The translations under genes and the position numbers were made by a program. The notes beneath the pieces are model-generated. The model was not told where the DNA came from and did not search any database. It saw only the letters and a list, made by a program, of their open reading frames with translations. Positions 902 through 54,140 of a DNA stretch of 64,000 bases are shown piece by piece. Every line of letters starts with the position of its first letter. The first letter of the stretch is position 1. The DNA is from Cyanidioschyzon merolae (lineage: Eukaryota): assembly GCA_000091205.1 (NCBI GenBank), contig AP006499.2; one strand, given 5' to 3'.

Positions 902-3900
902 ATGGTCTAGAGCACTTGGTAGGGACTCAGCGCGTCTGCTGATTCGGGGACTTGGTCGACCTCTGTCGAAGCTCCGGGTAGGCTCCATGTTATTGCCAGA
1001 GGAACACACAAGCGCCTGTCCAGAATCAGCGAATACCTTTCGCAGAAGCACACAATTGAAGTCCAAACGTGTAGCGATTCGAAATTGGCACGAAAGCTCC
1101 ACCAGTTTCACAGGGCGCGCACAGTTCAGACGGGTGCTAGACGTGTTCCCAAATGCAAACGACTCGATGCGAGGCAACCGTTCTCAACGATGCCCCAGGT
1201 GTTCCTCACCGCGGATAGAGAAACAGAAGCACAGTTTGGAGACGGCTGCTCAAAAAATTGCTCTCTGACTCCGAACACCACGACGGTACGGCAGCGGGCA
1301 ATCGTAAAAACGTGCTTCCGGAACGTTCCCTTGCTTGCCGGAACTAAAATAGTGTAGCCCGCGGCACTGCGTACAGCGCAGCGTAGCGATCGTTGCGATG
1401 GCGAGCGGCTCGTCGATCTTGGTTGAAGCCGCGTTCCGCTCATTTTCGTGACTGCGACGGTGGCGGATGTTACGGCCATGGCCATAGCCATAGCCATAGT
1501 AAAAGAGCGCTCCACTCGTGCCAAATTACGCTGGAACACTAAAGTGCTTCCAGTTTTCCTGGGTCTCGAATTTTAGGCCCGCTTTTAAGTAAAAAGCGCC
1601 GAATTTCCGAGAACACCAACGAGATCTTACGGAGTCAAGCATAGCACTAGGAATCCCGGTCCTCGATTCAGCGTGGCTTCCTGGGTTTTGCCGCTGGAAT
1701 TCGTTGTATCACTGGACTCAAGATGCTTCACGACGCCCTCGAACTAGGGATGATTAACTTCCTGTTATCATTATCCTGTATATGAGTGCAAGCCTCCACA
1801 CGTTTCCTTACCATATGTCTAGCGTGCTCAAGTCATGCATTCTCCAGGATTTCCATATTTCTGGTTCGAGGGGATTCATAGGCGCAGCGATTTGAGCCAC
1901 TGGATTAAAGACGAAAAATACTTGAAGCTATTCGTTAAAACCCTGTTCATCATTCCATGCCGAAAGTTCAGAAAATGTGGCATATGGAAAGATCAGTACC
2001 ATTTGAAACACCTATCCGCCTCTCTTTGTGGTCATCCACGCAAAGTCATTCCATAGCAATACCTTAGCGCTCACGAGCTACGTTGCAAGAGGCTCCCGTC
2101 CCATTTGTTTACATGAAGAAGGGTCCTGGACTCGGGATTCACGCATCGAATTGATCGCTTGTCTTCGTATATTCATAACAGATTTGCACGATGGAGGCGT
2201 AGACAAATCGAAATTGTCGACTTTTCTCCAGCCTGGTTTTTCCTTCCGGTAGGGTTTCGTCATCGACAACATCGCGTTCCCAGTCCTCTGTCAGGTGGAG
2301 CAGCGTGCGCTTGGGCGTGCCGCAGACAGAATATTCTCCGAGGGCATCGCTCGGGGCAAGCCCGAGCTCCCAGGGTACGGCGCCATACGCGGAAGCGGAC
2401 GGGAGTTTGGATCGCATTCTTCTCCGCCTCTCGGGGCCATGTTCGGCGACTTGAAGCAATTTTTCACGCCCCATATAGCGACGTCTGGAGGCGACGTTTT
2501 GGTTGACGTATGGGAAAATCTTTCCAGTGCAAAATTTTACCGTTGCGAAGTACGCATCGAGGATGTACATGAAGAATACGAAAATGCAGTTGAACTGTAG
2601 ATCTCCTAACCAATTGTGGATGAAATCTGGCCAAAATAGCCGAAATGAGCGAAATCGGATCTTGAACGCCACCGCCAGCATCCTTCGACTGCTGAGAACG
2701 GAGCCGGAAGGGCAGGAGAGACCGGAGTTTTCAAATCCCGAGACCAGAAAGAGGAAGAGAAACAGTTGCACAAAATCCCATTTATGCTGGAGTTAATGAT
2801 CGCACGAAGAGATCGACACTCAATAGTGCAAGGTAGAGTGAGATAGATGAATTCGTCGCATGTTAGTCTAGCATGGGTGTATAGGATGTTAATCCCCGCT
2901 ACACAAGTGAGTTGAGATACTCGGCAAGGCGTCAGCTCTCCTAGATGCAGACGCGAGACGTGCATTTGGTTCGGAGAAAAACCAGCTTTGCACGAATCTT
3001 GCTTGGTACGCTTCAGGGAGTCGAGTTTTGATGCGAAGAGGCTAGGTTATAGTCAACTGACCTCAACAGATTATTGCATACATCTAGAAAGGAGATCGAA
3101 TGCAAAAGGGTCCTAACATGTTGAAAAACCCCGCAAGCTAGCATGCATCAAGATCATTCGGAGATCCTCTCTAGGACGTCAGTGTGGGGCGGTGCAAACC
3201 GAATTGCTATTCCTGATTTTTCTTTGTTTCTGTGCATTTTCACGGACTGCAGTCGCGTTACCATCATGGGAAGGCTCTAAAATCCGCAAACGCGAAACAA
3301 GCGTGCTGGCATTAAATGCGAACCTGATCCACAGCTATTGCTCTCGCCCTTGTCCAGGATTCCACCATGGATTTCGCACTTAACATATGTGATGTCACCG
3401 CCTTTTCTATCTCCTACATCAAAAAGCGAACTATGTACATATTTTTCATAACATTGATCAATTATAAAAACTTTCGAAGTTAAAATCGGAATTATATGCA
3501 TTTTGAATGCGTAGTTACGTGATGTTTTCGGGCAAGACTCTTCTAATGCAGAGATTGCCTTCCGGAATGGATGCATTTTTGTGAAGCTCGCGCATCAGTC
3601 CTCCCACTCGAAGGACTCGTAAACGGAGCCTTGGTTGTTTGGTCTCGTCTTTTTAGACGAGATCGCGCTGCGTAGACGATATTCGAACAGCATTTTGCGT
3701 GAAAGATCTGGTTATCGCAAGTACTTGTATCAGAAAGAGTAGAACGAGAGCTCCCTTGAGACTCAATTTTACCGACTGATACGTGTGGACTTCGCAATTC
3801 TTCCCTAAACTTTGGAATTTCATGAGGGAGTTAGCTAGATTGACGGGTTCTTGAAGAATAACGCCATCTGACCTCGATATGTGCCTGCTCCTACGGAAAC

Positions 3901-5121: not shown

Positions 5122-5770
5122 TTTTAAAGTTTGACAGAACGTTTACATTGACTATTGATTCCAGGTTGTGGGATGGATATTGGCATTCGGGAAAGAGCCC
5201 ACCATGCTGCGCCCTGCTTCGAAGTTGCATCACGCAGACTTATTCTTGGATATACTGGTCGTTTCATGAGCTCCATCGTTCGCCGAGCCTGCCCTAGTGG
5301 CCCACGGTAGCGCCCATAGCGTTTGCGCGGATGCATCGCCGAGACAGAGCGGCTTTGCCATACCGCTGGAGGCGTCGGCTTGAGGCGTGGATCATCCGAC
5401 ACGGGATCGGGATTCATCGTCATAACGTGAGCCTGCGAGCTGCGCAGAAAGACACACTGCCTGCCGGAGCGGAACGCGATATGCTACGAGTCCACCGCGA
5501 CCAGGGCGACGCCCAGACACAGTATACCCGCTCCTAGTCCCAGAATAAAGTGCGTTGCGGACGAGCTGCTCGGGTCTCGCCGCATCACGACTCGATGCAG
5601 AGGCGTATGGAGCGTCTACCAGACAGACTCGTTAGGCTCTAGGGACATTCCGCATAGAAGGTAAACTTTCGAAAATACGGAAAACTTTGCTCCTTCCAAC
5701 GTTTACAGTAGAGGGAGAAAGAAAATTTAAAAAGTTGCTATTTAATGGTTAGTTTCGCTTCCTTTATGGG
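5122..5770 (+). repeat. Copy A of a non-coding dispersed repeat family, lacking the 5' ~200 bp module. Shares conserved blocks with copies at 25941-26585, 37474-38290 and 51131-51985.
   Basis: Conserved blocks read directly in the sequence: 'tgacagaacgtttacattg', 'ggatatactggtcgttt', 'gctcctagtcccagaataaagtgcgttgcggacgagctgctc', 'ggtaaactttcgaaaatacggaaaac', and 'gttgctatttaatggttagtttc'. No conserved ORF. Confidence 0.7.
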
Positions 5771-14831: not shown

Positions 14832-15489
14832 AAAGCAAAATGGATGGCGGTCTCCTGCAAGGCAATATCGAGAGGCAGGTAGCCTGCTAAGTCGCGCGCC
14901 GTTTGCGCGGCGCGTTGCTTTCGCAGCGCATACGAGGCTCTTCACCGAGGCTATTTGTTAGTTGATCCGTCGCCTGCGAGCTTGCGCAGTTCTGAGGTTA
15001 CGGGCGAAACGCCTCCGACAGCATGATGGATACGAAAAGATTTTGCAGACGCTACTTTGAGAGCGAGATTGTTGCTCATGGCTCTTAGCAGAAACCGTGA
15101 AAATGTTCCTTGGCGCCGTTCGTTGCACCGATGTCAGACGATAGTCTTTCAGTTGAATTTTGTTTCAACCTCAATGCAGTGTATAGCAGTAGATCGAAAT
15201 TACTGTGCAATGTACCCTATAGATCGTGTACGATTTGTCTGTAGGATATATTCTTTATTAAACAGTGCAAGCAGATCTGCATTCCTCATTCAGCTCTATC
15301 ATACAACGGTGTTCAGAATGTTGAGGAACACCGAAAGGAAGAGTTATATGCGCTCCGCGCCGAAAACCGATCTGCCCAGAGCGTGCCTCCGGTCAAATGT
15401 AGAAAACGATCCTTTGATTACCTTTTACGGAAGGCAAAATCAACGACAGTAACAGCTGCGGGTGTCTCTGTTGCTCTACAGCTTGTTTT

Positions 15490-16048
15490 TTGGTTCTGAA
15501 ACCCCCGCGATACAGCCGCGAAAAAAGCGCCCTAGTTCATTCACGGCCAACTTGCACAGAAATCGCAATAACGGAATTCCTGGAACGTCGCGATCGATAT
15601 GGAGCACATCTACGTCGGTTTGATTTTTCAGTCGATGAGACTGCCTTCGGAAGAAGCTGTCGGAGCGGTTATGTGTATTTTCGGAGCGGAGCGCCTGTTG
15701 TATGTACGATCGAACTCGAAGAGAATGACGACATCATCATTTGTTCTAGCCGCCGTGGATTCATTAGGCGGCCTCAGTTTCGCTCGTAGAGAAGGCTCGT
15801 CCAACAGCGACCACCGCCTGGAGTCATTGAAAGCATTTCCCCTGACGTCTGGCGAAATACTTCTACTGGACCACGTTGCATTCAACTATCCCCAATGCGT
15901 CCGAGCCTTTGGTAAATCTATCGAAGTACAGCTGCTTTTCGTTCCCTCTTTCTCTCCGGGGTTCAACACCATCGAAGGGGAGATTTCAATCGTGAAACGT
16001 AATAATCGCTCCACTGGACGAATCGGTGGAGCCTTCAGCACACGGTGA
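15490..16048 (+). pseudogene. Tc1/mariner (IS630-Tc1-mariner, DDE_3) transposase relic, frameshifted.
   Basis: Two overlapping ORFs in different frames. The first carries the first-Asp region 'FDFSVDETAFGR'. The second carries 'ILLLDHVAFNYPQ' (the DNA-x-H block) and 'FVPSFSPGFNTIEGEISIVKR' (the LPPYSPDLNPIE...W..K block). Homologous peptide fragments recur at 17.1, 30.2, 45.6 and 47.3 kb. Confidence 0.7.
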
Positions 16049-16099
16049 CACGTCGGGACACATGTCGTCATGCTTCCGCGAGTCCTTCTCCCTCCGGGA

Positions 16100-16600
16100 A
16101 GGTCCTCACCAAAGGACATAAATAAGTGCATTCATTTTCTAAAATAAATTACCTAAAGAAAAAGCATGGATATGGAAGTTGAGGATCCTTGGGGGTCGTC
16201 ATCGGTGGCTGCCGGTAAAAAACGAAGAAAGTCACTTTTTCCCGATCATTGAGCACAGAAGAGAAAGTGAAGAACAAAAAGAAGAGGGCAGATAGGCGAG
16301 AAGAGGTATTTGCAGGACAGGACGACGACGAGACCCTGGTGACACGGAGGGCACAATTTCTAGCAATCCTTGCAATGATGAGTTCAACCAGCGGCAACTC
16401 ACGCAAGGAGTTTGTGAGCCGAGATTTCAATGTCGCCATCATTATCAGACGTTGTGTCGTGCTGAAGACGAGACCCGACGAGCTGCAGCGATCCTACTTC
16501 GCGAGGCAGCCTCTCAGGCTCTAAGTGTGCTGTGCAGAACTGAAGCCGAGAGCAGGTGGCCGGTCGAAAATGGCGGGGAGGCGTCTGTGAATGAGTATAT
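16100..16600 (+). mobile_element. Truncated 3' fragment of a TnpB/Fanzor-like element: the RuvC-III coding tail plus a conserved downstream non-coding segment.
   Basis: ORF 16249-16524 ends with 'FVSRDFNVAIIIRRCVVLKTRP', to be compared with 'FVNRDFNAAVNIRRYAVLENRP' at 53.6 kb. The downstream 'aggtggccggtcgaaaa...gaggcgtctg' is conserved with 53790-53850. The upstream 'gtgcattcattttc...gcatggatatggaag' is conserved with 31300-31350. Confidence 0.6.
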
Positions 16601-17099
16601 ATATACAGTTTTTGGCCGTGAGAAGTTTTTGCTTTACATGAAAATGTAAGATGAAATACTCGCTATGTTCCTATTTTGCGTTATTTTCGAACTGTTTGAT
16701 TAAATGCACAGTCTCGACATTCGAATTGCACCAGTAAATGCTTACGGATTCATAGGCAATTTTGGGATCCTCCGTCTCCCTTCCGGAGGATGTTCTTTGA
16801 CGCTTCGCAGCTGGAACTCTTGACGATCTCGGAATCGAGATGATTTGCGATGCACTCGAACAAGCAATCGTAAAATAGCTGATATGGTTATCCATTTCAT
16901 ACGTGCAAGCATATAGTCTTCTCCGTTCCGTATGTGCAGCAAGCTTACATCACGCATGTTTAAAGATTTTCTTGCTTCTATTTCAACGCAATTTGCTGGC
17001 GCAGCAATTTGCGTCGTTACATTGACGCAGAAAAATCATGATGTAGTTCCTTAACGACTTCTGCATTGGCTTACATAGAAAGTTTAATGAAACCATCAC

Positions 17100-17500
17100 G
17101 AAATATAATCGCATCCGTTCGAACGAGAAATCCTCCTTTCATGGTGGCCATCGACGAGACGTCTTTCGATATTAGCGAAATACCTTTCACGGGAAATGTT
17201 TTCAGAGACGTCGGTGCTTTCTGTTTGCGCGGAAACTGATTTTGAGCTCGCGCTCCAGTCAGAGCAATGATCGATTTCAGTGGAGAGATTGTCAGTGCTT
17301 CACACAAATGGAACGTAGACAAATCGAAAAGTCTCGATATTCCCACCGATAATTTTTTCATCAAGGACAACGCACCGTTCGACAAATCGTCTATTATACG
17401 GAACAGCATGCACTTGCACATGCAGCCGAAGGAGTACTTGCTAGCGGATCGCCAAGCTCAAGCCGATGATCGAACGGAAGGAGATAGGGCTCGCTAACGG
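17100..17500 (+). pseudogene. Tc1/mariner DDE_3 transposase relic, fragmentary and frameshifted.
   Basis: Plus-strand peptides 'MVAIDETSFDISEIPFTGNVF' (first-D block) and, in another frame, 'FFIKDNAPFDKSS' (DNA-x-H block). A conserved 'AIDILRLLTTELEGYERP' motif follows about 640 bp later at 17740-17830. The same spacing is seen at 30.2 to 30.9 kb. Confidence 0.5.
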
Positions 17501-25610: not shown

Positions 25611-25940
25611 AACACAACCTGTTGTGCTCGCTGTCTATTCTCGTTCTCCAGTCGAACTGAATGAAAGCTAAAAGGCATCGCGGATGACAGTCGGACAGGA
25701 AACGCTCGACAATGAACCCTACCGGCTGACCGCAGCGATGCGAAGCGGCGCATCAGCGTACAGGCGCGATCGATCCCCTGAGCGCCGCGCGCGGCAGCGA
25801 AGGGTTCATGCGCCGCTGCTCGCCGCGATGCTCGCATCCGATCCGTTCAGAACTGTGGATAGAAAGCATGATCTAGTTTGTGAATATATGTCTATTAATT
25901 GCATATTATGTACTGATTCTGGTTGATAAGTGGTTTTTTC

Positions 25941-26585
25941 GATGACAAAAAAATTCGTTTCCATTGGCTATGGATCCCTGGTTGCGCGATGGATAATGGT
26001 ATTTGAAAAAGCGTCGATGATGAAGCACCTATGCTCAAGTTCCATTACCCACACTTCCTCTCGGATATACTGGTCGTTTTTTACATGCTACCATGTGCTG
26101 AATGCCTGCCGTGAAAACCCTCCGTGGTGCTTACACCCCTGGAGCAGAGCCATCACGGAGACAGAACGGCGTTGCCATCCGACTAAAGGGCGTCGTCTGG
26201 AATTGTCGTTCACCCGACATATGGTCGGGATTCGGGATCATTCTGTGAGCCTGCATGCTGTGCAGACAGACGTACTGCCCGAGGCAGCGCGAAGCGATAT
26301 ATAAATAGCTCACTGCGACCAGGGCGATGTCCTCAGTCGGATGGCGCAGCTGTTCTGTCTCCGTGATGCTTCTGCTTTAGCGGTATGAGCGCTACGGCAG
26401 GTGCTCACGGCAGGTACTCGGCGCAAGATAGCATGTACAAAACGGACAGTATATCCGAGAGGAAGTATGGGTAATGGAACTTAAAGGTAGGTGCTTCATC
26501 ATGGACGCTTTCCCCAAGGGCATTATACATATGCCGAATTCTGGGAAGCATGTTCAATGTAAAAGTTTTGTCATCGAAAAATCAA
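25941..26585 (+). repeat. Copy B of the non-coding dispersed repeat family, rearranged.
   Basis: Shares the 'cgatgacaaaaaaattcgtttccattgg', 'ggatatactggtcgtttttta' and 'cattctgtgagcctgcatgctgtgcagacagacgtactgcc' blocks and the 5' module 'tatccgagaggaagtatgggtaatggaactt' with the other copies. It contains a perfect 19-bp internal inverted repeat, 'catcacggagacagaacgg' at about 26150 against 'ctgttctgtctccgtgatg' at about 26350. It ends with an inverted copy of the 'atgacaaaac.tttacattg' block at 26555-26580. Confidence 0.65.
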
Positions 26586-29546: not shown

Positions 29547-30129
29547 CAAGATCCGTGAAGAGAGACGCTACATTCCGGTATGGTTGGAGAGATACAATAG
29601 GATTTTGCTGGGAGCCGAGATGCCTGCAAAGGCGCCGCAAAGCTGCTCTGCGTCCATGTGAGAACTGCAACTGCAACGCATTCACCGTTGTAGCGAGCGC
29701 CCTGCGGAAGGCTCGACCCCCGACTGGGTCACTATACAAGTCTCAGATAAAAATGGAGCATTGAACTGCTAGCACTGTTGCTAGCGTTCAATTTTTAGCC
29801 CAATCATTTCTTAGATGCGCATCCTCCGCACTCAAACTAAAATAATAAAAGTTTACAGGTTCACTCGTGGTTTTTTTAGATTCTCGTTCGTTTTTCCGTG
29901 GTAGCTTGTTCGACTCTTTGTTGCTGGAATGCGTTTCTTTGTCGAAATCATAATGATTCACGACGCCATTGAACAAGGGTTCGTAAAGTACCCGATTATA
30001 TTATCCAGTTGATACGTCCAAGATTCCATTTTTCTCCTTTCTTTGCGTCTAGTACGATGAAACAGCGCATTCTTCAAGTGTTTGACCTTTCTGCTTCAAG
30101 ACAGCTGGAGCGCGTAGCAACTTGCACCG

Positions 30130-30400
30130 CTGGATTGACGACGACGAAGAAAATTCGACATCGTCCCTTGAATAGCGTTTCGTAAACGCACGCCAAACGC
30201 TCACTGAACCAATCACAGCAAGTAATCGATGCGGTTCGAAAAGCAAGTCCTTCCCTCTTGATCGCCATCGACGAAACGGGATTCCGCCGCAATTATAAGC
30301 TATCTCTCACGGGACACGCTCCCAGAGGCACCCATCTCATTTTCCGCGCGGAAAAGGTTCTTGGACTAGAACTAGAGTCGTCGCTGCGATCGCTTCCACT
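30130..30400 (+). pseudogene. Tc1/mariner DDE_3 transposase fragment.
   Basis: Plus-strand peptide 'LLIAIDETGFRRNYKLSLTGHAPRGTHLI' (first-D block). The motif 'MNILLLLKTELEGQEN' follows at 30890-30990, matching the same spacing seen at 17.1 to 17.8 kb. Confidence 0.5.
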
Positions 30401-31259: not shown

Positions 31260-31700
31260 CAGTTTTCAGCAGGAGCATTGGAGTGCATTCATTTTGAAGG
31301 AATGAATAATCCAAGGTGAAGCCATGGATATGCAGGACAGAGATCCTGTTGTCCCAGTGTTGCCGTATACGACCAATAAAACGAAAAATCTATTTCACGC
31401 GAACCATCGAGCGAAAAGAGCATAGAACGAACAAGAAATAGAACTGGGGAGATGGGCGATAAAAGGTGTTTGCTGGACTGGACGATGCCGAGACTGAACT
31501 TGCACTGAATACACGAGTTCGATGAGTCCCTGCATTGATGAGTTCAACCTGGTTCAATCAATACAAGAGGTTCACGCAGCGTGACTGCAACGCTGCTAGC
31601 AGTATCAGACGATATTCGATGCTCAAGACGGGACGCGAGGAGCTGACACGATCCACACTTGTTGGACAGCCTCTCAGGATTGAAGTCTATGGCGAGATGC
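31260..31700 (+). mobile_element. Second truncated TnpB/Fanzor-like 3' fragment (degenerate RuvC-III tail plus conserved flank).
   Basis: The 5' boundary block 'gtgcattcattttgaagg...gccatggatatgcagga' is shared with 16113-16190. 'gcattgatgagttcaacctgg' is shared with 16375-16395 ('gcaatgatgagttcaaccagcgg'). The peptide is 'FTQRDCNAASSIRRYSMLKTGRE'. The downstream 'gacagcctctcaggattgaagt' matches 16503-16525. Confidence 0.55.
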
Positions 31701-34279
31701 TGCAATTGATAGCATACGGCAAGTCGATATGGGCTGAGATGCATCTCTCGGGTGGATGCTCATTGACCCTCTATGGTCGCGGAACGTTTGCGATGCATTG
31801 TGCATCCTGGGGATCGCTTGGCGTCTCGCTCGAGGAAACTTCGCCTAGCCTCCTTCGCATTGATGCAACTCGTCAGGCAACTATTTCCAGTCTCGAACGC
31901 GGGGTTGCGAGCGGTCCACATTCCCCTGAAATTTTTTTTACCAAACCTTCGTGAGACACGACAACTAATTTTGGGATAAAGTATGGGATCCGGCTTGATC
32001 CTCGGATCAGAGAATATGATACATACGCTACTCTGAATCCCTCGGCACGACGCCGTACCACGTCGCTAATCAAAGCATGTACTTCGCTGGTGCGAACAGT
32101 ATCAGACCGACCTAAAACAGCAATATTGCGTGCTCGTCAACGCCGAGCGTTACTTCAACCGCACCTTTTGGGTGCTGTAGCCCTACTTTACTGGCTCGGA
32201 AAATTGGAGACTGATGAAACGGAATCTTGGGATGGCGATGGAAGCAACTGACTAGCTCGTGGTGGAAGACATCGAAGTAGCAGAGAGTTCGGAACAGATG
32301 TCGCAACGATACTTAGCGTCCCGTCAAATCGTCGATGTTTGTCGTGATGATCTCGGCCACGGAACGACGAACCTCTTACTCAAAGGATGGTGAAAAGGTG
32401 ATGCACCCTTCATTGCATCTTGCGCTGCCATTCGTTCACGAATGGAGTTATCCAGAGCCAAGCTTACCCTCCCTTCGAATCAGAGCACACCAGCCGCAAC
32501 ACGCGTCTCTTTGGTGTGGTTCTCGTACGGTACATCAAGACCCAGAAAATAACTCAAGATATTTGCATAGTGTACTGAATAGCCTCCTTCGCGAGCTATA
32601 GCTCGAATTTGCGAGCAAGTATCAAGCATTCGAAAAAGTTCGCCAAGGCTATTGGGAAAGCTTGTCCAAGCATTCTGTTTCACAGAAAGGAATTAGATAG
32701 AGGATGAACGGGTGATGGAGACCAACGGAATACACATCTGAAAGAACCATGTGAAACTTTAGCCTAACTCGATCGCGGAGACTCATTTCCGACCGTAAAA
32801 GGTAGATGAAGCGCAAGAATTCGCGGTAAGTGGGAAACCCTGCTTACATTAAAAACGTGGTAGTCTCCATATCTCTCAATCGCCGGGAACGGAGCCAAAG
32901 ACCTGAACGGAAATCGGATGAAGCTGCTCATGTCTTGTAGGGCTCGGTATTATCGGGAGCCGGGCGTGATGTCCAACAGATGGCGTTCGAACAAATGGAG
33001 CACCAGCATAGTCGGAACCCGTCACGACGCTGCAAGCATCATATCAAGCTGAGTTGGATACATTTTGAGCCTCGCTCAGAGGGCATTTTAGCTCCCAGAT
33101 AGCTTATGAGCGGAATTTTTGGCGGGCATACATGAAAACGTGCTGGGGCCGCCAACAGATTCGGTTGTTCACAGGCCATAGGCTTGCATGAGCCAAAATT
33201 TTCAATCACTTTCAAAATGAAATGAGCGACAAATCGGGACGTTTGGTTGAAGCCTACGGCGCTGGACGTGATGAGGCGCACATGCGCTGCGCTTGTACTC
33301 CTTCGGCGAGAGCATGTAAAAATTGTGGGAATTTGATTCTGCATCGGTCCAATTGCCGTATTCAGGACGTCATACTCGAATCACGAGCACAGGTGTACGG
33401 TTGAACTGGAACAGAGGGAGAGAGTGAAGCAAAGCCGGATGCATGAGATGGTGTCCAATAAACTGACCCAAGCTCAAGTGGCGAGGCATTTGACGGTGAG
33501 ACGCTTGTGTCTTGTGATTCCACCAGCAGCAAATGCGCAAAATAAGTTGCTGCTCTGAGCCTTCAGCGTCTTGATCAACTTCCGCATTTGTCTCGTGCTT
33601 CTGAAGCGTCCAGTGGCTTTCTGTCGAGTAAACTTTTAGGGGAATGGAATAGAACTCAGCGTTGACATTCTGCAGAAATGCTGTAGGCTTCCAACGAAAA
33701 AATAGGTAACCAGAAGAGTGGAGACAGGATTATTGGGACGTGCATGGCGCTGTTGTGCTAGGGTCAGCAATTAGGAGAGGTGGGTGCTCCTTCTAGATGC
33801 ACTGGGACGGCTTTCCTCGGTAACTGGTGAACGATTATCATTTTACATGGCATTCATTACTGAGTATACTCAGTGTTGAAAATGAACCGGATTTCTACGT
33901 CCTCAGTTCAGAGAGTGAATCCAAAATCAGCCTTGCTCCCTAAGTGTTGTTATTCTTCAACGTCTTGATGCCGCCCCCGTAGCCACATACGACGTGCAGG
34001 ACAATCCCATCGAGTACTGGAAGCTGGCACCGGATCGCAGCAGCGCACGAAGCGATACACCAAGCAAGGAGACCTGCACCAGTAAATGCGGCTGGCGAGG
34101 TAATCAGGACAAGCTCGCCATAATGTGTATGAATGTCTTTCACAAAAGATACCTGCATAGGTGCCGAGCAAGGAAGCTGCCAACGCTTCTACTCTGTCGC
34201 TGCCTTCACGCTGTACATATAGAAGTCAATCGCCGGCATCCAGCGGCTTTCACGAGTAGAGCCCTGTCACGGATTCAGC

Positions 34280-36974: not shown

Positions 36975-37473
36975 CGCAGTGCCACCATGTGCGACATTTC
37001 ACCGCATTGCACCCTACTGTTTTCGGTTGGAACACGAGTTCCCACGCCGGCTACCCGAAAACTGCGTGCCGAACGAGCCGTCAAGCGTTCGTAGACGACG
37101 AGACACTTTTCGGATCTCCAGACTAGAAAGTTCTTATTTTTTTGTAACAGTAAAACTACTTTGGCTGTTTCGTTTCGTCATCAGTTTCGCTGTTCTTGAA
37201 CGTAGATCGAATCCAATCATAAGGCTCGATGAACCAAAAAGCTGTCAGGCCCACTAGCAGACCCCAACGTGCTGCTGCTCCAACATCTACTGGACGTAGC
37301 CGACGGAAAAGCTGCTGCAAAGCTGGTACACCTCGAGGTCTCGCTGCGTTCATATCACAAACACAAGTGTCTATCCCCGGAGCACCTCGAAAACAACTCG
37401 TACAGCGGTCAGTCGTCCGGGATGCGCGATGTGCCCTGGCGGCCGCACGCGCTGCGCATTGTCCGTTTCTTTC

Positions 37474-38290
37474 TCGATGATAAAATTCGGTTGACCATGG
37501 ATCCCAGATTGCGGGACATATAATGATGATTGAAAACGCGTCCATCTTGATGCATCTTTCTTCGAGTTCCATTGCTTTCACTTTCTTTCGAATATACTGG
37601 TCGTTTTTTACTTTCTATCATGTACCGAGTGCCTGACTGCGCCCACAGTAGCGCTTATACCGGTGGAGCTGATGCAGCACGGATACAGAACAGCTGTGTC
37701 GTACCACTGAGGGTTTCGGATCGAGGAACGATTCACCTGATACGGAATCAGTGCGGACAATCATTCTGGGAGCCTGAAAAGTGGGCAGAGAAACCTGGTG
37801 CCTGCAGCAGCGCGGACCGATATGCTAGGAGATAATTGCAATATTGGCGACGCCCAGACGCAGTATCCTAGTACTTGTCTAAGAATAAAGAGTGTTGCCG
37901 ACAAGCTGTGCAGGTCTCGCCACAGCACCTGCCACTCGAGGGAGTATGAAGCACTAGCCCGGCAGACCCGTCCGGTTCGCGGGACCTTCCACACAGAAGG
38001 TAAAGTTTCGAAGATACGGAAACCTTTCCCCCTTCAACGCTTTCCATGAAGGTCGAAAGAACCTGTTATTGAGTTGCTATTTAGTGGTTAGTTTCTGTTC
38101 TTTCGACAGTGGATCGGGATTCGCTTTCATTCTGGGAGCCTGCAGACTGCGCAGACAGACCTACTGCCTGCGACAGCACGGAGCGATACGCAAGGAATCC
38201 ACTGCGACCCAGACGACGCTTAGACGCAGCATATCAGCTCCTAGTCCCAGAATAAACTGCGTTCCAGACAAGCTGCTCAGGCCGCACTAA
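37474..38290 (+). repeat. Copy C of the non-coding dispersed repeat family, carrying an internal tandem duplication of the ~190-bp 'cattctgggagcctg...tagtcccagaataaa...gacaagctg' unit (about 37737-37930 and 38125-38290).
   Basis: Shares the 'tcgatgataaaattcgg', 'cgaatatactggtcgtttttta', 'tgcctgactgcgcccacagtagcgc', 'ggtaaagtttcgaagatacggaaacc' and 'gttgctatttagtggttagtttc' blocks with copies A, B and D. The ORFs called here (37156-37581, 37229-37480, 37798-38049, 38069-38290) are not conserved between copies. Confidence 0.7.
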
Positions 38291-42762: not shown

Positions 42763-45539
42763 CTGACGAGGGCAAGCAAGCCTTTAGGAGCCTCCTCAGT
42801 AGGAGGCTCTCTATCTCGTGACGCAAAGATCAGCGGCGGAAACCCGAAAACAGAATCCGCCTGTTTGATGCGGTACAAGGCATCCGGTATTCTGGCGGTT
42901 GCCCGGCACACGCCTGCGCTACGTCCGAGATGCTTGTAATGCTTTCGCTGGGCAAGGAGGCTGTATTTTGAAAGCTTTCAATTTAAAGTGTACATTTACT
43001 AATTTTTGTACCACGTACCGCTAAACTTCGTGCAGGTTATCTTTTTCAAGCAGTTTGGTGTCAGATATGGCAGCTAAAGTGAGCAAACCTTCTATATGGA
43101 AGATGTTGGCGATCGTCGTTCCAGGAGAAAGTTTTTGATCGAGTTGCAACGGCGTAGTGGTGCTGGGAACGATAACTAACCGTTTCGCTTCGAACTTGAA
43201 CGGCGAAGTAACCACAGTGTTTCGTTTTGGGCGCTTGCATGGAATATTTTATGATTCAAGTTCCCATTGGAGGTGAGACTTTTTACTCAGTGGCAAAACG
43301 CAAGGAGGCCGAGCGGCGACTCGCGCGCTTGGCCTCAGAGTCACCAGGGAGCAGTGCCGATTCTTCTGTCCTCGGCTCCAACGTACCCGCAACGCCAGGA
43401 CTGGAACGAGCTGGAGACGTCTCGTTGAGTCATGATGAAGAGGTTTCTAGCGAAAAACCGAAAAAATGGCCCCGAGTATGAGAAGCTTGCCGCACGGAAA
43501 GCGCCATGCTTGCGGTGCCGTTCACATGGTAATATTAGGTGCTTTCGCGTGAACGCGGTTGCCCTGCCATGTTTTTCATAGTGGAGCATTCCTTAGTCAA
43601 TCAGGAGATACAAGGACACAAGAACAATGCTGGTACTCAGGGTGTGGGTTCCAAAGCGGCATATGCGCCGTTTGGATTGTATCACGTCACAACGGGACTG
43701 GGCGTATGCAGAGATTGCAGCATACATGAACGCTGCCGTTGACCAGAGATGAAACCTCAACTACCGACGAGTTATCGGAATGCAGCACCTGCTGCTGCCC
43801 TGAGCAACACGTCCTACCCCGTTGCTTGGTCAAATGTTTCGCTCGTTTGCATGAGGAATCCTATCTGGATTGCTCTTGTCATGCAGACATATTCAGCAAT
43901 ATCCAATAGCGGAACCCTAGTACAGCTCACCAGTTGTGCGGGAAGATCGTTCCCAGTACATACGTATGGTGCTGGAGCCTCACCAGAATCCTGAACGCAC
44001 CACGCGAGACTCCATTGCCCCCTTTCCTGACCACTGAGTTTTTTCCATCGGAAGTCGTTAGTGTTTCAACGCAATGCCGAAACTGGGAACTGAACGATTC
44101 CATAGAAACTTTGCTCGACAGAGCCGGTTAACGCTGTTTAGCCCCGAGAAATTTCCGGAGTTTACTCGATTTGTTCAAGTTTCGGTGGAGAGAGTGCATG
44201 CGCGCATGGTTGCTGGTGGAATCAGACCAAAGCATGCCACTCACCTTCGTTTACCTCACCATCTGAAGGTCGGTTGTTCTGGAGTGACGAAAAATGGCGT
44301 TGTCTACGAGCCGGGCAGCATAGCGTGGAGAGGAGAAGCCACGAAGTGTGTTTCTCCTCAGGATGAAGTCGTACGCGATCCTGCACATGTCGTATTTCGT
44401 AGGTGACCGCAGTATTGAATCGCCGTACGCGCAAACATTATCGGGAAACACACTTATCCCTTCTGTACGAACACCATTTTACTCTTCGTTGGCGACACAT
44501 ACATAGTTCTAAGCTTTCTCTCGAACCAAGTCTCATCGAACGAGAAGAGCATCCGTCCTTAACGTAACAAGAGTTCGCGCGTCAGAATCGAATCCACTGT
44601 GTATTGTTCAAGGCGCAACGCTCTCCCACAGACGCACTCTTTTTTTCCTCGGCCATCCATGTCTCTTCTTCACCGCTCGTATTGACAGTGCGAAAACCAC
44701 AAATCATGGAACTGGGTTTTTGATGTTTCTCAGAGAACGCACGAACAGGACTGGAATGACCTGGAGAGAGTCGTACAGAGAAAATTTGCTGAGTTCTATG
44801 TTGAGTGCGCGACGTTCAGACTAGGGACACAGCAAAGACTGCTTCAACTACTTGCTGAACATTAATTGGCTGACTTGGATAAGTAAACCCGTTTTTCGAT
44901 AGGTAGCGGTGATTCCATGACGTCTCCCCGCGATGTTTCTCCGCCCAAACGATACACCCTTTTCGAAGAATAGTCGGAAGAAAAAACAAAAACAGAAACT
45001 GCGTGCTTGTTCAAGAGTACTGGAATTCACTGCTCACCGAACATAGCAACGAGACTTGTCATGGCGAAAGAATCTAAGGGCGTGTCAGATTAAAACAGAC
45101 CACTGAACTGGGCGCTCTGTTCATCGCTTTCGATTTCCGAACTGTTTCATGTACAGCCCCGACATTTGATGCGCGGTTCGAAGAGCTTACGAATGCATAT
45201 ACTTTTAGAACTCTATGCTGACTTCTCGGAATGTTTACTTCGATGCTCTTCTACTGGAATTCGTGACATCAGTGTAATCAAGATGATTCGAAACGCCCCC
45301 GAACAATGGTTCGTGCACTAAGCAACGTCATTATCAAATGAATACGTACATGCCTCGACTGTTCTCCTTTGCTTACGTGTCGCCAGCTTCAATCAAGCAT
45401 ACTTCAAGGTTCGAAATTTTCGTTCCGAGCTAACTCCTGTACGTTGCGATTCTAGCGCCTGACTTGATGATAAGAGCGACTCAACGTCGTCCGCTGAGAA
45501 CTTTTCTGGAAGCTCATACGGAAAGTTCATTCAAGTTTT

Positions 45540-45620: not shown

Positions 45621-47179
45621 TGCTACATGTCAAGCAATATGATTCCAGAAACTCCCGTTTTTCTATCTGGATGGACAATTGGTCTTGGATTTGGACTTCA
45701 GTCATCACAGAGAACCGTTTCTATCCAAGGTACACCTCGGCTTTGCACGAAGAAGCTTAGGCTAATTAAAAAGTTCCCGGCACGGTCTCCAGTCTTTGTT
45801 TTCATTCTGATACCATTTTTAGGGAGAACAAGATCGAATTCCACGAATCCTTAATGGAAAAGAAGAGCGAGCGCTTCCACGTGCAACGGACATAGTCCTC
45901 CCCGAGCCAATCGCCCAGAAGAAATCAGGAATCTTAGAGTACGGTGCTGGACGCGAGAGCGGAGGAAACATCCAATGAAGCTTTCTGTGCCTATCAAGCG
46001 AACGCACCAACTGATGAAGAAAGCATTCACGTGCCGCAGCGCTGCGCTTCGATGAAGAGAAGGTGCGGTGGACGCATGGGAAACCGCACCCCAGCCCAGC
46101 GTGACCGGTGCGAAGGACACACCGAAGATGTACACAAAGCAGATGAAAATAACCAGAGGATCCCAGCTGGCAACGATCGTATATTTATGAAACGGACCGC
46201 CAACACCGGGACGCAGTGAATTCCGGATTTTGAGGCTGCCATCAATGTATCTCGACTGCTAAAATCGTAGCTGGAGGCACAGCAGAAACCAGCGCATTAG
46301 AAACTGAAGATAACAGAGTCGAAAAGGAAGCAGTGGTAGAAAGGATGCACAAATGCTAATGCTGATGGCAGTGGGAAAAGAATCAGAGTTTCAGACGAAC
46401 GCTAGACTTCGACAAGGCGATGCATTTCATTCGATCCAAACAGTTCAGTACAAAATATCAGTGAAATAGAAAATGTCCCGCGACCATGCAGGATCAATGA
46501 GCACCCACGGATAGATGCCTCCCAGGCTTTTTTGACCCGCTGTCTGCTATCGGTTTCAGCTTCTCACTGTACGCTTCGAGCGTGAGGGGATGTCCAACAA
46601 AATTTGGACCCCCAGCTCCTCGGGTCCCGTCTCCAGCACCGCATATCGTCTGATACTGATGGCGGCGTTGAAGTCTCGGTTCATAAACTCCATACGTTTT
46701 GATGCCTCTAGTTGATCTTATCAATGTGCGTATTCCCCGAGCTCGCGCTTTCAGTACCATTTGCTGCTCTGCCAACTCTCCGTGCGTGTCCAATGCCGAA
46801 GCGCTCCGTTGGCTTCTCTCCGTTACGGCCTTCTGAAGCGTACATTCCTGCTCTTTCCATAAGTTTGAACATGAACGCACTTCCTGACGCCTTTAGATGA
46901 TTACTTCCCCGGAGAGAGACGGACTTGCTGAGGGACTATGACATGTATTCCCCGTGTGTCACCGTGTGCTGAACGCATTAGCGATTCGCCCAATGGAGCG
47001 ATCACTGCGTACCAAGATAGAAAATACTCATAGGATGGGGTTGAACCACGGAGCTAACGGAGCAATGGAAAGCAACTGTATCCCTATAGAATTCGCAAAA
47101 GCTCGGGCGCAAGGGGAACGATGAAATGCAACGTTGTCCGATAGAATAGCGTCTCCAGACCTGCAGAGCAAAAGTCTTC

Positions 47180-47460
47180 AATTATTCCACAATGTGGAAT
47201 GGTGTTTTCTGAGCCTTCTATTCGAGTTCGATCGTACATTTAACAGGTTAACTGCTCTGCAAATACCCGGATAAGTTGTGACGGTTTCGTCCGAAGGACG
47301 TCTCATCGACCGAAAACATAAATGGACGTCCCTGTGTTTCATACCGATCGTAATGTTCCAGGAACGCTGTCGTTGCGATTGGAAGGAAGATGCCATTGCT
47401 TGAACGATGACTCTTTTTGAGATTGTATCCCAGTGTTTTCAGGATCATAGGCGCGACTTG
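47180..47460 (-). pseudogene. Tc1/mariner DDE_3 transposase relic, minus strand.
   Basis: ORF 47248-47448 (-) reads '...TAFLEHYDRYETQGRPFMFSVDETSFGRNRHNLSGY', which is near-identical in motif order to '...TEFLERRDRYGAHLRRFDFSVDETAFGRSCRSGY' at 15.5 kb. Confidence 0.55.
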
Positions 47461-48333
47461 GTGAGAAACAGAGACGCCTGTGGCGGCTATTATCGTCGCT
47501 GTTGCTTTCCGAAAATGGTGATCAACGGATCGTTTTCTAAGATCGACTGCAAGCGACCTCTATGAATATCGATCTCTGGCACGGAGTGCATCTACATTTT
47601 TCTTATAGTTTTCGCCAACCATCTGAGTACGTCGGTATGACTGTCCTAAACGAGGAATGCAGTCCTCCTTGGACTGTTCAGAAATGAATGTAAATGCTAC
47701 ATGCAAATCATCTACGATCTACACTATGCATTGCATTGCGATTTCGATCTCCTAGACATCGCAGCGGAAGTGAAACAGAATTTAGTACAAAGACTACAAG
47801 AACGGAAACCTCGGGCCTCTTTGATGGTAGCGTTCACGCATCCGATAGATGCCAATATGACACATCTGGTGAAAAAGCAGCTAAACATTCGCGTCGATTC
47901 GTTTTCTGGGTCTGTTCAGGGCATGGTGCTGGCATGTGCGTGCTGGCACTCACCAGCACTCACTGAACGTTGCTTTGCAGTCGCGAAATGCGAAAGCATC
48001 CCGCTCCAACGCGAGTTCGCGGTGATGAACTTGTCTTCAGCATCGCTTCCAAAGTCCGAATGCGACCAGCAAATGCCTCTTCATGGGAAGCTTGCGGCAA
48101 ATACCATCTCAGTTTGACATGGATGAATTCGTGCTCGACATTTCACGAGTGCAGCGCAAGAGGTCAATTCACTGTCCGCTTACACCTGTGCATGCGACGG
48201 CAACATAGAAACCGGAAACGAGTATTCTGCATTCACAGGAAATACCCTGCAGCATAGGCATCTGGATCCCATCCAATCGTTCAGAGCGCTTTTCCGCACG
48301 GCGCTGCTGAGGGCGCACTGATCCGTAAAACGC

Positions 48334-51130: not shown

Positions 51131-51985
51131 TCACGGGCAGGCACTCGGCGCCCGATAGCACGTCTGAAACACCATTACATCCGAGAAGAAGTATGGGTTA
51201 TGAAACTTGGACGTAAGGCGTGGAATGACGAAAGTTCCACCGCGCGCAGGCATCAAGCGCACAGAGTCGCGGCACGCTCGCCTGTGTGAGAAGTTTTCAC
51301 ATGGAACAAAATCCGCTGCATTTGCTGTTGCCGCTGATTTTTCTCCAATGACAAAACGTTTACATTGTACTTGGATTCCAGATAGCGAGATGGATGGGTA
51401 TAGCTGATCGAAAAAGTGTCCATCATGATGCACTCTACCTCCATGCTCCGTTCCTTATACTTCCTTTCGGATGTACAGATCGTTTTGTGCGTTCTGTAGT
51501 GCGACCGAGTGCCTGCTTTGGGCACCCGCCTTAGCGCCTATACCACTGGGACGGATGCATCATGGAGATAGAACAGCGTTGCCATACCACTGAGGGCGAC
51601 GGATCGAGGAACGCTTTACCTGATACAGCGTTGGAGTCCAGAATAATTCTGGGAGCCTGTAGGCTAAACAGACAGAACTTTTGGCTGCGAAAGCACGAAC
51701 CGATATACTAGGAGTCTACTGCGATCTGGGCGACGACCAAACACAGCATCCCGCATCTAGTCCCAGAATGAACCGCGTTGCGGACGAGCTGCTCAGGTCT
51801 CGCCACAGCGCCCGCTACTGGGGGGAGCACGAAGCACGAGTCCGGGAGACTCGTCCGGCTCGCGGGACTTTTCGCCTAGAGGGAGGATTCTTCAGAATAT
51901 GGAAACCTTTTCCGCCTTTTCAAAGTTTATCGTAGAAGGGGAAAGAAATTGCCGTATCGTTGCTCGCTAGTCGTGAGTCTCTTTT
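51131..51985 (+). repeat. Copy D of the non-coding dispersed repeat family (the most complete copy). It lies immediately upstream of the TnpB/Fanzor-like reading frame.
   Basis: It contains the 5' module 'ggcaggcactcggcgcccgatagc...catccgagaagaagtatgggttatgaaacttgga'. Further blocks are 'atgacaaaacgtttacattg', 'ggatgtacagatcgtttt', 'cattctgggagcctgtaggctaaacagacag', 'tagtcccagaatgaaccgcgttgcggacgagctgctcaggtctcgccacagc' and 'ggaaaccttttccgcc'. It ends about 225 bp before the first in-frame codon of the Fanzor-like frame (52211). Confidence 0.7.
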
Positions 51986-52210
51986 CTTTGTTCAACATAG
52001 CGCAGTCGATTTGCGCACCAGGGAGATCTGTCAGTTTCGAGTCACGACGCGTATGCTGCCGTTGAAGGGAAACGCGATCCTGATCAATAGCGTGCTGCTC
52101 TAATGTGCAAGTTGTACTTGCGTTAAAGACGTGGCAAAGTACAGTTCTTCAGTTCATTTGTGTTTCAAACCTCAAACAAGTGTATTCAACTGTTTTTTCG
52201 CAGTATATAA

Positions 52211-53776
52211 CTGAAGCGTTCAAAGTCCGTTACAAAAAATAAAGAAGGAAAGTCATGGAAAACCAAGTCGACGATCCTGGAGGCCCAGTGTGGCTGGCCG
52301 CCAGAAAAAAAACAAAAAAATAGTGCCGAGTCCAGAAGAAAGCGAAGTGAAAAAGAAGCATTAGGGGAGGCTCTACGTCGAAGGCAGCAAGAAAGACGTC
52401 TGTACAACGAGATGGCGGTGAAAGCCTGTCTTCGTAAACATACCAAGGATCCGTACAAGGAAAAGTTGCGAGGCGCTATCAGAAACCGTGTCGAGTTCTA
52501 ATCCATGAGTATTATAAAGGCGTCATCAGTACGAATGCATTTGGTGTCGGAGATGTACGGAGACGTGACGCACATGGAAACAGTCGAGGTTCCGGATGCG
52601 TTTTCCGACAAGACTTCTATTCGTCACCTGATGCTTGGTACAGGGGAATCGTCGACGAAAAAAGAGCTAGTCCATGCCTTCCACGAAAACTTTGCAGATT
52701 TCCGCTTCGAGGGTACTCGATACAAGGGTGACGGAAGTATTTACACATACGGGGCGATGAAGTACATCACGAACCTGAGGAACCATTTGACTATGAACCC
52801 GGAGCGTTTCATGATACGCACCGTCTTTGCGCTGTACCCGGGACTGTCTCGCAAAGGAGTATGGGCGATTATCAATGGGATCACGAACGATCGCAAGCAT
52901 GAAGATGACAAGGAGGCGGATCTCGCGACGAAGAAAGTGCAGGATAACGACTCTGTCGTTCACGCGGACCCTGGGAATACGAATATCATAACCATCGCAG
53001 CACCCAAGCGTGGGGAAGATGGTACTGACGGTACCTTGCGTCAGAAAGATATGTGTCTTTTGAGGTTCTCGAGAGCAAGATACTATCGAGAATCCGTTAT
53101 AATGAATGCGAGAAAGAAAATCGACACATGGAATGCAGGAATGAAGGATCACCTGGAAGCTTTGAGGGAGGTGACGAGCCACGGGGCGGACTTTACAGCT
53201 TCTCGGAAATTCATGGAAGTTCGTGTTGCTCATTGGGATGCGCTGTAGAAAGAATATACAAAGCCCCGGCGGGCTCGTTTGCGTATGAATTTGTATTGTG
53301 GGAGGCAGCGTGCATTCGCAATCTTTTTCAATGAGTTGCGTGCCCTGAAGGAGGACGAGCGTCAAAGTCTCGTAGTAGCATACGGAGCAGGGCGCTGGAA
53401 GACCCAAAAAGGATGTACACCAGCTCCAACGACAAGAACGTACAAGGAGTGCGCACGGCGTTTTGTTACGGTGCCTGGAGATGAGTTCCGAACATCGTAT
53501 GTGCATCATGAACTGTGATGTACGCTTCAGAGAGTGGAGATGGAAAAGTGCCAGAGGAGCCCTGAGGATATAAAAAAGTACGGAGCGCTGACAGATGAGC
53601 AAATGGAAAGGAGGGCGAAAGTTCGAGGATTGCTTGCATTAGTAAGTACAACCAGTGATGGCAAGAAACGTATGGAATTCGTGAATCGTGACTTTAATGC
53701 CGCCGTCAATATAAGGAGATATGCGGTGCTGGAGAATAGACCTCCAAAGAAGACACAACAGGACTTAATTGGATAA
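52211..53776 (+). pseudogene. TnpB/Fanzor-like (OrfB_IS605-type RuvC RNA-guided nuclease family) gene, about 520 codons in one frame. It is interrupted by three in-frame stops: TAA at 52498, TAG at 53246 and TGA at 53516. It is probably a decaying element gene, though I cannot exclude very short introns.
   Basis: All three ORF-track segments (52505-53248, 53279-53518, 53534-53776) and an upstream segment (52211-52497, '...KRSEKEALGEALRRRQQERRLYNEMAVKACLRKHTKDPYKEKLRGAIRNRVEF') lie in the same frame. Motifs: RuvC-I-like 'VVHADPGNTNIITIAAP' (compare GIDxGxxN); RuvC-II region 'LVVAYGAGRW...YKECARRFVTVPGDEFRTSYVHHEL' (compare IvxEdL...YKA...V.VdE.yTSk.C); RuvC-III 'MEFVNRDFNAAVNIRRYAV' (compare D-x-N-A-A-x-N-I). 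The zinc-finger region is degenerate. Confidence 0.6.
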
Positions 53777-54140
53777 TCACTCAAGGTGGAATTATATGAG
53801 ACAATATTGGAAGCGGTAGTAGGTGGCCGGTCCAAAAAACTAAGAGGCGTCTGCACGTCAGCTGAAGATGTCTAGTCTAGGGCGGGTCACTCGCCGCTAT
53901 TGTACACGGCCGCTGGTGGCAACGTTTTTCGTTTGAAAGGCGTTTGCTGTCTGTCGATCGAAGCCACCATAGGCTCACACCTAACTAGAAGCCCCGGTTT
54001 GAAACTGCATAGGCAGCGTATAGAGATCCAAATCGTCGACAAGCCACTTCTTCTCAATGCTCGCGAGCGAGCAGTTGCAAGTATTTGGAGGACACACTCG
54101 CTCGAACTAACGCACCTGTCACTGCGAGCGGTTCCACATC

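Follow-up and report, generated by a model that had tools for sequence, protein, structure and literature searches.

A probable ancient composite DNA transposon, decayed and internally deleted, with mariner-type transposase and Fanzor1 remains in Cyanidioschyzon merolae 10D

We analyzed a window of 64,000 nucleotides from contig AP006499.2 of C. merolae 10D. The sequence from 15141 to about 16655, referred to here as copy c16, is in all likelihood a single copy of an ancient composite DNA transposon, now inactive, that has decayed and lost part of its interior (Table 1). A sequence-only reading had taken its 3' part for a solo tail, reduced to the last 60-80 codons of a Fanzor-like gene and followed by a conserved non-coding segment proposed as a candidate guide RNA (ωRNA). 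We found that c16 keeps a DDE_3 transposase pseudogene, the Fanzor ATG and ~45 N-terminal codons, and is not a solo tail. The flagged segment is the C-terminal extension of Fanzor1 (...EVY.EKLKPIAGGRSKK.GRRL...) and is former coding sequence in c16. The idea that this segment, or the c16 copy, specifies an ωRNA is not supported.

Table 1. Parts of copy c16 and the related copies in the window.
Feature	Position	Strand	Remarks
c16, left end and transposase 5' leader	15141-15207	+	begins TAGTCTTTCAGTTGAAT; like the left TIR of intact relatives (TATACTCTGTATACTAAAT)
c16, DDE_3 (Tc1/mariner/IS630-type) transposase pseudogene, frameshifted	15208-16045	+	N-terminus MYPIDRVRFV
c16, intergenic sequence and Fanzor1 5' UTR	16046-16165	+	conserved AAGTGCATTCATTTT; aligns with c31, c46, L079 and CMe-1A consensus ~1316-1400
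c16, Fanzor1 ATG and ~45 N-terminal codons, frameshifted	16166-16310	+	MDMEVEDPWG...KKRRK; ends at deletion junction near 16300-16320
c16, Fanzor1 C-terminal remnant	16311-16521	+	RuvC-III RDFNVAIIIRR at 16420-16452; runs to ...FARQPLRL
c16, premature stop TAA	16522-16524	+	c16 only; GAA or GAG (Glu) in other copies
c16, former reading frame, still in frame	16525-16590	+	VCCAELKPRAGGRSKMAGRRL, then TGA at 16588-16590; includes flagged segment 16554-16589
c16, decayed 3' non-coding end	16591-16655	+	least conserved part of the element; right end ~16640-16660
c31, another copy of this deletion derivative	31262-31830	+	5' UTR, ATG, same junction, tail
c46, same layout (DDE_3 pseudogene and Fanzor tail)	46455-47796	-	internal deletion larger than that of c16
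c53, CMe-1A copy	51338-53944	+	TE-N2_CMe-like 5' part and Fanzor1 pseudogene; right end 53944

The similarity shared by c16, c46 and the metagenomic locus L079 starts at 15141. From this left end to the transposase ATG there are 67 nt in c16 and 53 nt in the intact metagenomic relative L003, and positions 15141-15184 also match nucleotides 1279-1323 of the consensus of CMe-1A, the Fanzor1 family of C. merolae described by Bao & Jurka 2013 (PMC3627910). The ORF at 15599-16048 matched Pfam DDE_3 with 32 bits against a gathering cut-off of 28.6 (E = 1.3e-7). When the transposase of the intact elements was searched against the window with tblastn, nearly the whole protein (aa 98-376) aligned to 15198-16042 (E = 4e-36). 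The c16 transposase pseudogene is ~70% identical to those of c46 and L079. The Fanzor N-terminus of c16 (16166-16250) is like the start of c53 (MENQVDDPGG...KKTKK) and that of the published CMe-1 protein (MEKEVEDPGG).

Self-comparison of the window identified four related tails, at 16269-16586 (c16, plus strand), 31429-31789 (c31, plus), 46870-46470 (c46, minus) and 53518-53944 (c53, plus). At ~70% identity, 15188-16586 aligned with 47753-46513 of the minus strand. No DDE_3 part aligned upstream of c31. The ORF of c16 at 16249-16524 (plus strand), whose C-terminal end reads ...KEFVSRDFNVAIIIRRCVVLKTRPDELQRSYFARQPLRL before the stop, has 91 codons, is uninterrupted and keeps the RDFN motif, as might be expected of a small protein domesticated from the Fanzor C-terminus. 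However, it starts with TTG inside the frameshifted N-terminal remnant and is without RuvC-I and RuvC-II, the equivalent ORFs of c31, c46 and L079 are each broken differently, and its identity of ~0.7 is that of the flanking pseudogene. We regard domestication as exceedingly improbable.

c16, c31 and L079 (= L059) all carry the Fanzor 5' UTR, ATG and ~45 N-terminal codons, and in all three these pass at one identical junction into the last ~85 codons. We infer as follows how the deletion arose, in which order events took place and that the element is without function today. The ancestor would have consisted of a left end, a DDE_3 transposase gene, a Fanzor1 gene (a TnpB-like RuvC nuclease) and a short 3' non-coding end. 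Loss of ~600 Fanzor1 codons, presumably through abortive gap repair, would have brought the initial ~45 codons next to the final ~85. Such deletions are typical of cut-and-paste DNA transposons; the element ends survive them because transposition needs the ends in cis. The junction common to c16, c31 and the metagenomic copy shows that the deleted form multiplied, as a non-autonomous subfamily; neutral decay would thereafter have left all copies ~70% identical to one another. Known cut-and-paste derivatives that lost their interior and became non-autonomous include Ds, from Ac, and MITE precursors. The c16-type copies are like these in that the ends were kept, the interior was lost and the deleted form multiplied, but the deletion lies within a passenger nuclease gene and the transposase gene stayed.

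Preferential retention of 3' tails, which had been read as a sign of a guide RNA, was not borne out. In the window, solo 5' parts (TE-N2_CMe-like) are no fewer than tails, and the dead c16-type tails are no better preserved than the remainder of the element. Identity among these dead copies was 0.68-0.70 in DDE_3, 0.62-0.71 in the RuvC-III tail and 0.58-0.72 in the flagged segment; over the parts of the element it was flat, at ~0.65-0.72, and it was 0.43-0.64 from the flagged segment to the right end. The tail was retained because a DNA transposon was internally deleted.

That the element is Fanzor-like was confirmed, and the family to which the c16 tail belongs is Fanzor1 as judged from profile and motif comparisons. 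A word-indexed metagenome search returned 106 relatives, many of which bear the precomputed Pfam label DUF8286, and an exhaustive profile search returned 2,765 cluster representatives. A 60-member profile matched the Fanzor1 structures 9cf0 (Parasitella, E = 5.5e-22), 8gkh (Spizellomyces, 2.4e-14) and 9cer (Guillardia, 9.5e-10) in PDB. The D (xDPG), E (DEFRT) and RD (RDxNAAxNI) columns of the 60-member alignment are invariant; this RuvC triad corresponds to D421, E592 and R658-D659 in the numbering of the metagenomic protein P0055, and the RD..NAA..NI motif aligned to the Fanzor1 PDB chains. The Fanzor1 structures were reached only with the 60-member profile: a 15-sequence profile had no match in PDB, and the conceptual c53 protein alone had none in PDB (phmmer), NCBIfam or Pfam. 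Searches of Pfam with individual window ORFs gave no match for the Fanzor pieces. PF07282 (Cas12f1-like TNB), for the zinc-finger domain that Fanzor1 has between RuvC-II and RuvC-III, matched 13 of the 60 family members, with the CMe-1 and P0055 proteins lacking a Pfam match, and an AlphaFold2 model of P0055 built from 15 sequences had a pLDDT of 45.6, too poor for a fold search. In c16 itself the RuvC-III RD motif (16420-16425) alone is retained and RuvC-I and RuvC-II are deleted; c16 is therefore a Fanzor1 remnant and no functional member.

CMe-1A, the only Fanzor1 family listed for C. merolae by its authors, was described as ~150 copies with ~80% identity to a ~3-kb consensus (3169 bp), without TIRs and of unknown classification, with TE-N2_CMe as its 5' 635 bp and a CMe-1 protein of 734 aa (PMC3627910). 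We rebuilt the consensus from 20 metagenomic copies and obtained the same left end (CGATGACAAAACGTTTACATTGACC...), the same right end (...TTTTGAAAGGCG) and the same protein C-terminus as published. Copy c53 belongs to this family, since its ends and protein C-terminus are as published and its 5' part recurs as separate repeats; the TE-N2_CMe-like part has five separate occurrences in the window. Its identity to the reconstructed consensus was 83-87%, and its Fanzor1 pseudogene is interrupted by a single frameshift and by in-frame stops and lacks consensus positions 2052-2693 through an internal deletion. The c16 tail, from the same genome, shares homology with the CMe-1 C-terminus, with ~68% of nucleotides identical. 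Because the identity of c16, c31 and c46 to CMe-1A reaches only ~68% and their 5' structure is different, with an upstream DDE_3 pseudogene and without the TE-N2_CMe 5' part, we consider them an older, distinct but related subfamily and not CMe-1A proper.

For analysis of the tails we fetched 79 loci of the window's CMe-1A subfamily and aligned 69-73 distinct tails. The shared right end that had been proposed for these elements stood for CMe-1A, where the 3' boundary is sharp and common to the copies: consensus identity falls from 0.75-0.9 to ~0.41 past ...TTTCGAAAGGCGT, and the right end reads ...GAAAGGCG. In the c16-type element the right end and target-site duplication could not be pinned down exactly. 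The right end of c16 was placed only to about ±15 nt; three-way similarity fades beyond ...TTTACATGA, with a pairwise identity of 0.43-0.64.

The stretch past the c16 stop (AGGTGGCCGGTCGAAAATGGCGGGGAGGCGTCTG) resembles sequence in c53 (53.8 kb), c31 (31.7 kb) and c46 (46.5 kb, minus strand), so that its reported conservation with the 53.7-kb copy was correct. About 65 nt past the stop are alike in these three other window copies and recur in 61 or more distinct metagenomic copies, and for this reason the similarity is not due to chance. It is coding sequence, however. The sequence-only reading had named conservation that continues as coding sequence in other copies as the observation that would speak against it, and this is what we found: intact copies, the 69-copy consensus and the published CMe-1 protein all read through the segment (...VGGRSKKTGRRL...), and the reading frame of the predicted proteins P0009 and P0010 continues through it. 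The 69-copy consensus ORF ends in ...QPLKVELYEKKLEAVVGGRSKKTGRRLHVSWRRFV, with its stop 105 nt past ENFVG, and matches the published protein, whose C-terminus is ...VGGRSKKTGRRLHVSWRRFV; after its last stretch (...ENFVGQPLKVELYEKKLEAVVGGRSKKTGRRLHVSWRRFV) the stop comes only ~57 nt ahead of the right end. The segment merely looks non-coding in c16, because a change of GAA to TAA at 16522 ended the ORF early.

Substitutions in the aligned tails carried the signature of selection on protein. Per-nucleotide variation within the flagged segment was at its maximum at third codon positions. The third-position excess was 2.8 in the RuvC part, 2.05 in PLKVELYEKKL (measured on QPLKVELYEKKLEAVV), 1.5 in the flagged segment (AVVGGRSKKTGRRLH), 1.22 in GGRSKK...RRFV and 0.97 after the stop. 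The pN/pS ratio was 0.21 in the RuvC part (control frames, 1.4-1.7), 0.24 in PLKVELYEKKL, 0.44 in EAVVGGRSKKT, 0.85 in GRRLHVSWRRFV (the 13 codons that end the CMe-1A ORF) and ~1 after the stop. The c16 segment resembles other copies by descent, and selection on the protein preserved it in the younger CMe-1A lineage. The GRRLHVSWRRFV codons showed no frame-specific selection, and because their overall substitution rate is somewhat below that of post-stop DNA, they may be under weak non-protein constraint in CMe-1A. We also considered unusually fixed synonymous sites in GGT GGC / CGT CTG and rejected them, as four-fold sites there vary as elsewhere; in the flagged segment as a whole, variation at four-fold sites was 0.197, versus 0.199 elsewhere in the ORF (p = 0.63).

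These results bear on the proposal that the segment is a non-coding ωRNA scaffold and that 3' tails were kept preferentially because they encode guide RNAs. In Fanzor and TnpB systems the guide RNA does originate in the 3' region next to the transposon right end, which in Fanzor is non-coding, as the sequence-only reading supposed (PMC10530073), the segment is common to all four window copies, and the CMe-1A copies have the same 3' boundary. The segment nevertheless forms part of the reading frame of intact copies and of the published protein, with a pN/pS of 0.24-0.44 and no extra constraint on synonymous sites, and signs of a folded RNA were absent. RNAalifold on 65 tails gave a consensus of -2.6 kcal/mol with no pair inside the segment and only a 5-bp post-stop hairpin, c16 from 16425 to 16660 folded no better than shuffled sequences (z = -0.46), and an Rfam search of c16 gave no relevant match. 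Three hand-picked stems (CAGTAGTGG/CCACTACTG, CCGGTC/GACTGG and CGTCT/AGACG) were rejected, with 83.3% of positions paired versus 81.3% in shuffles and no excess of double changes. The absence of covariation in CMe-1A is weak negative evidence, because most copies are dead and evolving neutrally. Considering also that c16 is no solo tail, that conservation is flat across dead copies and that 5' fragments are no rarer than tails in the window, we judge a non-coding scaffold very unlikely.

Intact relatives of the composite element were found in metagenomes. At loci of P0055 (699 aa), a DDE_3 transposase gene is followed by the Fanzor1 gene on the same strand; a further three lineages have the same layout, and one of their transposases shows a faint Tc3-type HTH match. 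A 3.64-kb unit is common to six contigs at 98-100% identity with differing flanks. It has imperfect TIRs (TATACTC...TGGAACACC) and ends in ...CATGAGTATA, 183 nt past the Fanzor1 stop. Junctions of the intact relatives read flank-GT/TATACTC...GAGTATA/flank, so the TA could belong to a target-site duplication or to the TIR. Neither c16 nor c46 yielded TIRs in an inverted-repeat search; decay at ~70% identity may explain this failure in c16.

In the intact relatives Fanzor1 stops at ...VGKTLRR and is followed by a ~160-nt non-coding module under strong constraint. Between L003 and L012, identity is 74% for the protein and 45.5% at four-fold sites, but 88-92% from ~25 nt past the stop to the right end. 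RNAalifold predicted a stem, P1, with four compensatory pairs, and more helices in this module. Its helices were 92.6% paired versus 83.0±1.7 in shuffles (0/500), and nine pairs had double changes versus 5.1±1.4 in shuffles (2/500); slid controls gave 32-51%. These figures come from six sequences of ~4 lineages, with the structure predicted from the same alignment. The module is probably an ωRNA, and conservation far above that of synonymous sites, together with the compensatory changes, makes it a good candidate for work on mariner-associated Fanzor1. The ωRNA idea is in this sense plausible for the family as a whole, with indirect support from the intact relatives. No counterpart of the module was recognisable in c16, and the literature searched contained no report of an ωRNA for a C. 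merolae Fanzor.

The constrained post-stop module of the relatives, with its covarying helices, raises the possibility of dual use. In the C. merolae lineage, disappearance of the ancestral stop could have let the Fanzor1 ORF run on into the 5' portion of an ancestral ωRNA module. On this view the segment would encode protein and at the same time be the homologue of P1, and Fanzor1 from intact copies could have used guide RNAs provided by the tails of deleted ones. When aligned on flanking motifs, CAGGTG...CGTCTG of c16 is in register with P1, and by inspection of the sequence GGTGGCC...AGGCGTCTG in c16 is like GGTGGCC...AGGCACCG in L010, with the same register and 6/6 pairs possible. Variation at the P1-register positions in CMe-1A is all wobble-compatible (92.8% paired). 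It is established for TnpB that the ωRNA overlaps the 3' end of the ORF. Fz1 scaffolds can moreover be very small (PMC11423790).

Against dual use, shuffled controls pair equally well (85.7% for the P1-register stem in CMe-1A versus 86.2% in shuffles), double changes are absent and four-fold sites are unconstrained. The motif matches are short, and c31 and c46 keep just 3/6 of the P1 pairs. The protein alignment places L-EAVV-GG-RSKK opposite L-VHRV-GK-TLRR, the C-terminus of the family, and because of this coding homology is favoured. We hold dual use to be distinctly improbable. By a related proposal, the ΔFanzor tails were once guide-RNA-only satellites in which the ωRNA took up the final ~230 nt, RuvC-III through right end, GGTGGCC...AGGCGTCTG being the P1 homologue overlapped by the extended frame and Fanzor1 of intact copies having served in trans. 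This we think quite unlikely.

In the 57 nt between stop and right end of CMe-1A we found a GGCG-loop-CGCC hairpin in which one pair covaries (GC:24 / CG:23), the well-conserved block CGCCACTACTGTACA and a terminal palindrome in two sequence variants; the mean thermodynamic z of -0.91 is unremarkable and lends them little support. None of these features is kept in the 3' end of c16.

Composite elements of this kind have precedents. Mariner-linked Fanzor1 includes PUl-1 and PGv-1 (Bao & Jurka 2013, PMC3627910), and Fanzor1c-Mariner/Tc1 associations have been described (Jiang et al. 2023, PMC10530073). As in these Tc1/Mariner Fanzor1 elements, a mariner-type transposase and a Fanzor1 gene are combined here in one element, and the intact metagenomic relatives (L003-L012, L092) have TIRs and both genes on one strand. 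c16 differs in being decayed and internally deleted, and neither TIRs nor a TA target-site duplication could be demonstrated in it. Like Fanzor/TnpB ωRNA (fRNA) modules, the flagged segment lies in the region from the 3' end of the nuclease gene to the right end. It differs from them in being coding in c16 and CMe-1A and in having no detectable structure or extra constraint, and CMe-1A has just ~57 nt of non-coding DNA from stop to right end. Saito et al. reportedly placed such modules at the transposon right end in 2023. The same location was given by Jiang et al. 2023 (PMC10530073) and Xu et al. 2024 (PMC11423790).

As originally flagged, c16 is of little importance, because it is a dead fragment of an already described family and its supposed guide RNA turns out to be coding. 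Copies of the c16 type and the intact metagenomic relatives jointly link the "unclassified, TIR-less" CMe-1 Fanzor1 lineage to mariner-type (DDE_3) elements. This link, the ΔFanzor non-autonomous subfamily and the candidate ωRNA of the intact relatives are the modest additions made here.

An exact look-up of one window ORF returned no match on record. Six window ORFs, among them fumarylacetoacetase, CYME_CMQ155C and CYME_CMQ169C, are identical to proteins of the red alga C. merolae 10D, which identifies the source of the window. Long ORFs are sparse in the window, and its G+C content is ~52%.

The 3.64-kb mariner-type Fanzor1 elements represented by metagenomic locus L003 encode a DDE_3 (Tc1/mariner-type) transposase of ~300 aa and a Fanzor1 protein of 699 aa, and they have been active recently. 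We observed that a ~160-nt 3' non-coding module was 88-92% identical across L003-type lineages, versus 45.5% identity at four-fold sites, and that it contained covarying helices; pairing is possible between an internal TATATAC and a terminal GAGTATA. Judged from these sequence comparisons, the module is a strong candidate for the guide RNA (ωRNA). L003 and its relatives came from metagenomes, several of them saline. The precomputed Pfam label of this Fanzor1 family's proteins (P0001, P0009, P0055 and others) was a weak PF26935 (DUF8286), and a separate Pfam search returned no match. Because the profile of this family matches solved Fanzor1 structures, DUF8286 appears to cover a Fanzor1 lineage.

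CMe-1A, the C. merolae Fanzor1 family, lacks TIRs. Within its final 57 nt are the conserved block CGCCACTACTGTACA and a hairpin whose stems are conserved, whose loop varies and which has one covarying pair, and the terminus is a palindrome in two sequence variants, GTTCGA-CTT-TCGAAC or CGTTTTTC-TTTT-GAAAGGCG, both of which fold. These features could represent a putative end-recognition structure or a minimal ωRNA. In a comparison over window 53752-53955, metagenomic contigs L085 and L072 were seen to have the insertion orthologous to the CMe-1A copy c53, with shared flank and stop mutations; those hot-spring-type metagenomes therefore contain close relatives of strain 10D, and the decay of c53 is older than the divergence of 10D from those relatives.

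Coordinates of repeats and element features
Feature	Location	Strand or note
Mariner-type Fanzor1 element, 3.64 kb	L003:851-4494	relatives L004-L012, L092, L093
CMe-1A right end	e.g. window 53880-53944	also L013-L091
(TA)n run GTATATATATATAC	window 16602-16615	decayed 3' part of c16
TE-N2_CMe-like copy	window 5132-5753	+
TE-N2_CMe-like copy	window 37467-38103 and 38127-38289	+ (first interval)
TE-N2_CMe-like inverted pair	window 25934-26327 / 26581-26325	+ / -
TE-N2_CMe-like copy	window 19546-19373	-
TE-N2_CMe-like copy	window 51215-51025	-
Other repeat family	window 16760-17000	+
Other repeat family	window 29873-30113	-
Other repeat family	window 45227-45422	+
Other repeat family	window 1677-1876	-

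TE-N2_CMe is a ~640-bp repeat that makes up the 5' part of CMe-1A (Bao & Jurka). The sequence-only reading had proposed preferential retention of 3' tails, which was not confirmed, as solo 5' parts were at least as frequent as Fanzor tails within the window. The two copies at 25.9-26.6 kb lie head-to-head.

The short (TA)n run in c16, a decayed, internally deleted mariner-Fanzor1 copy, is probably a local microsatellite expansion, because the other copies lack it. Three of the c16-type copies have a member of another repeat family within ~1.3 kb. A Pfam search of that family gave no match. The motif IDETSFD is encoded in its ORF at window 17066-17239, and window 29955-30353 showed a weak tblastn match to a DDE_3 transposase query (E = 0.005). 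By sequence, this family may represent a further decayed DDE element of a different kind, in which case the c16-type loci would be transposon clusters.
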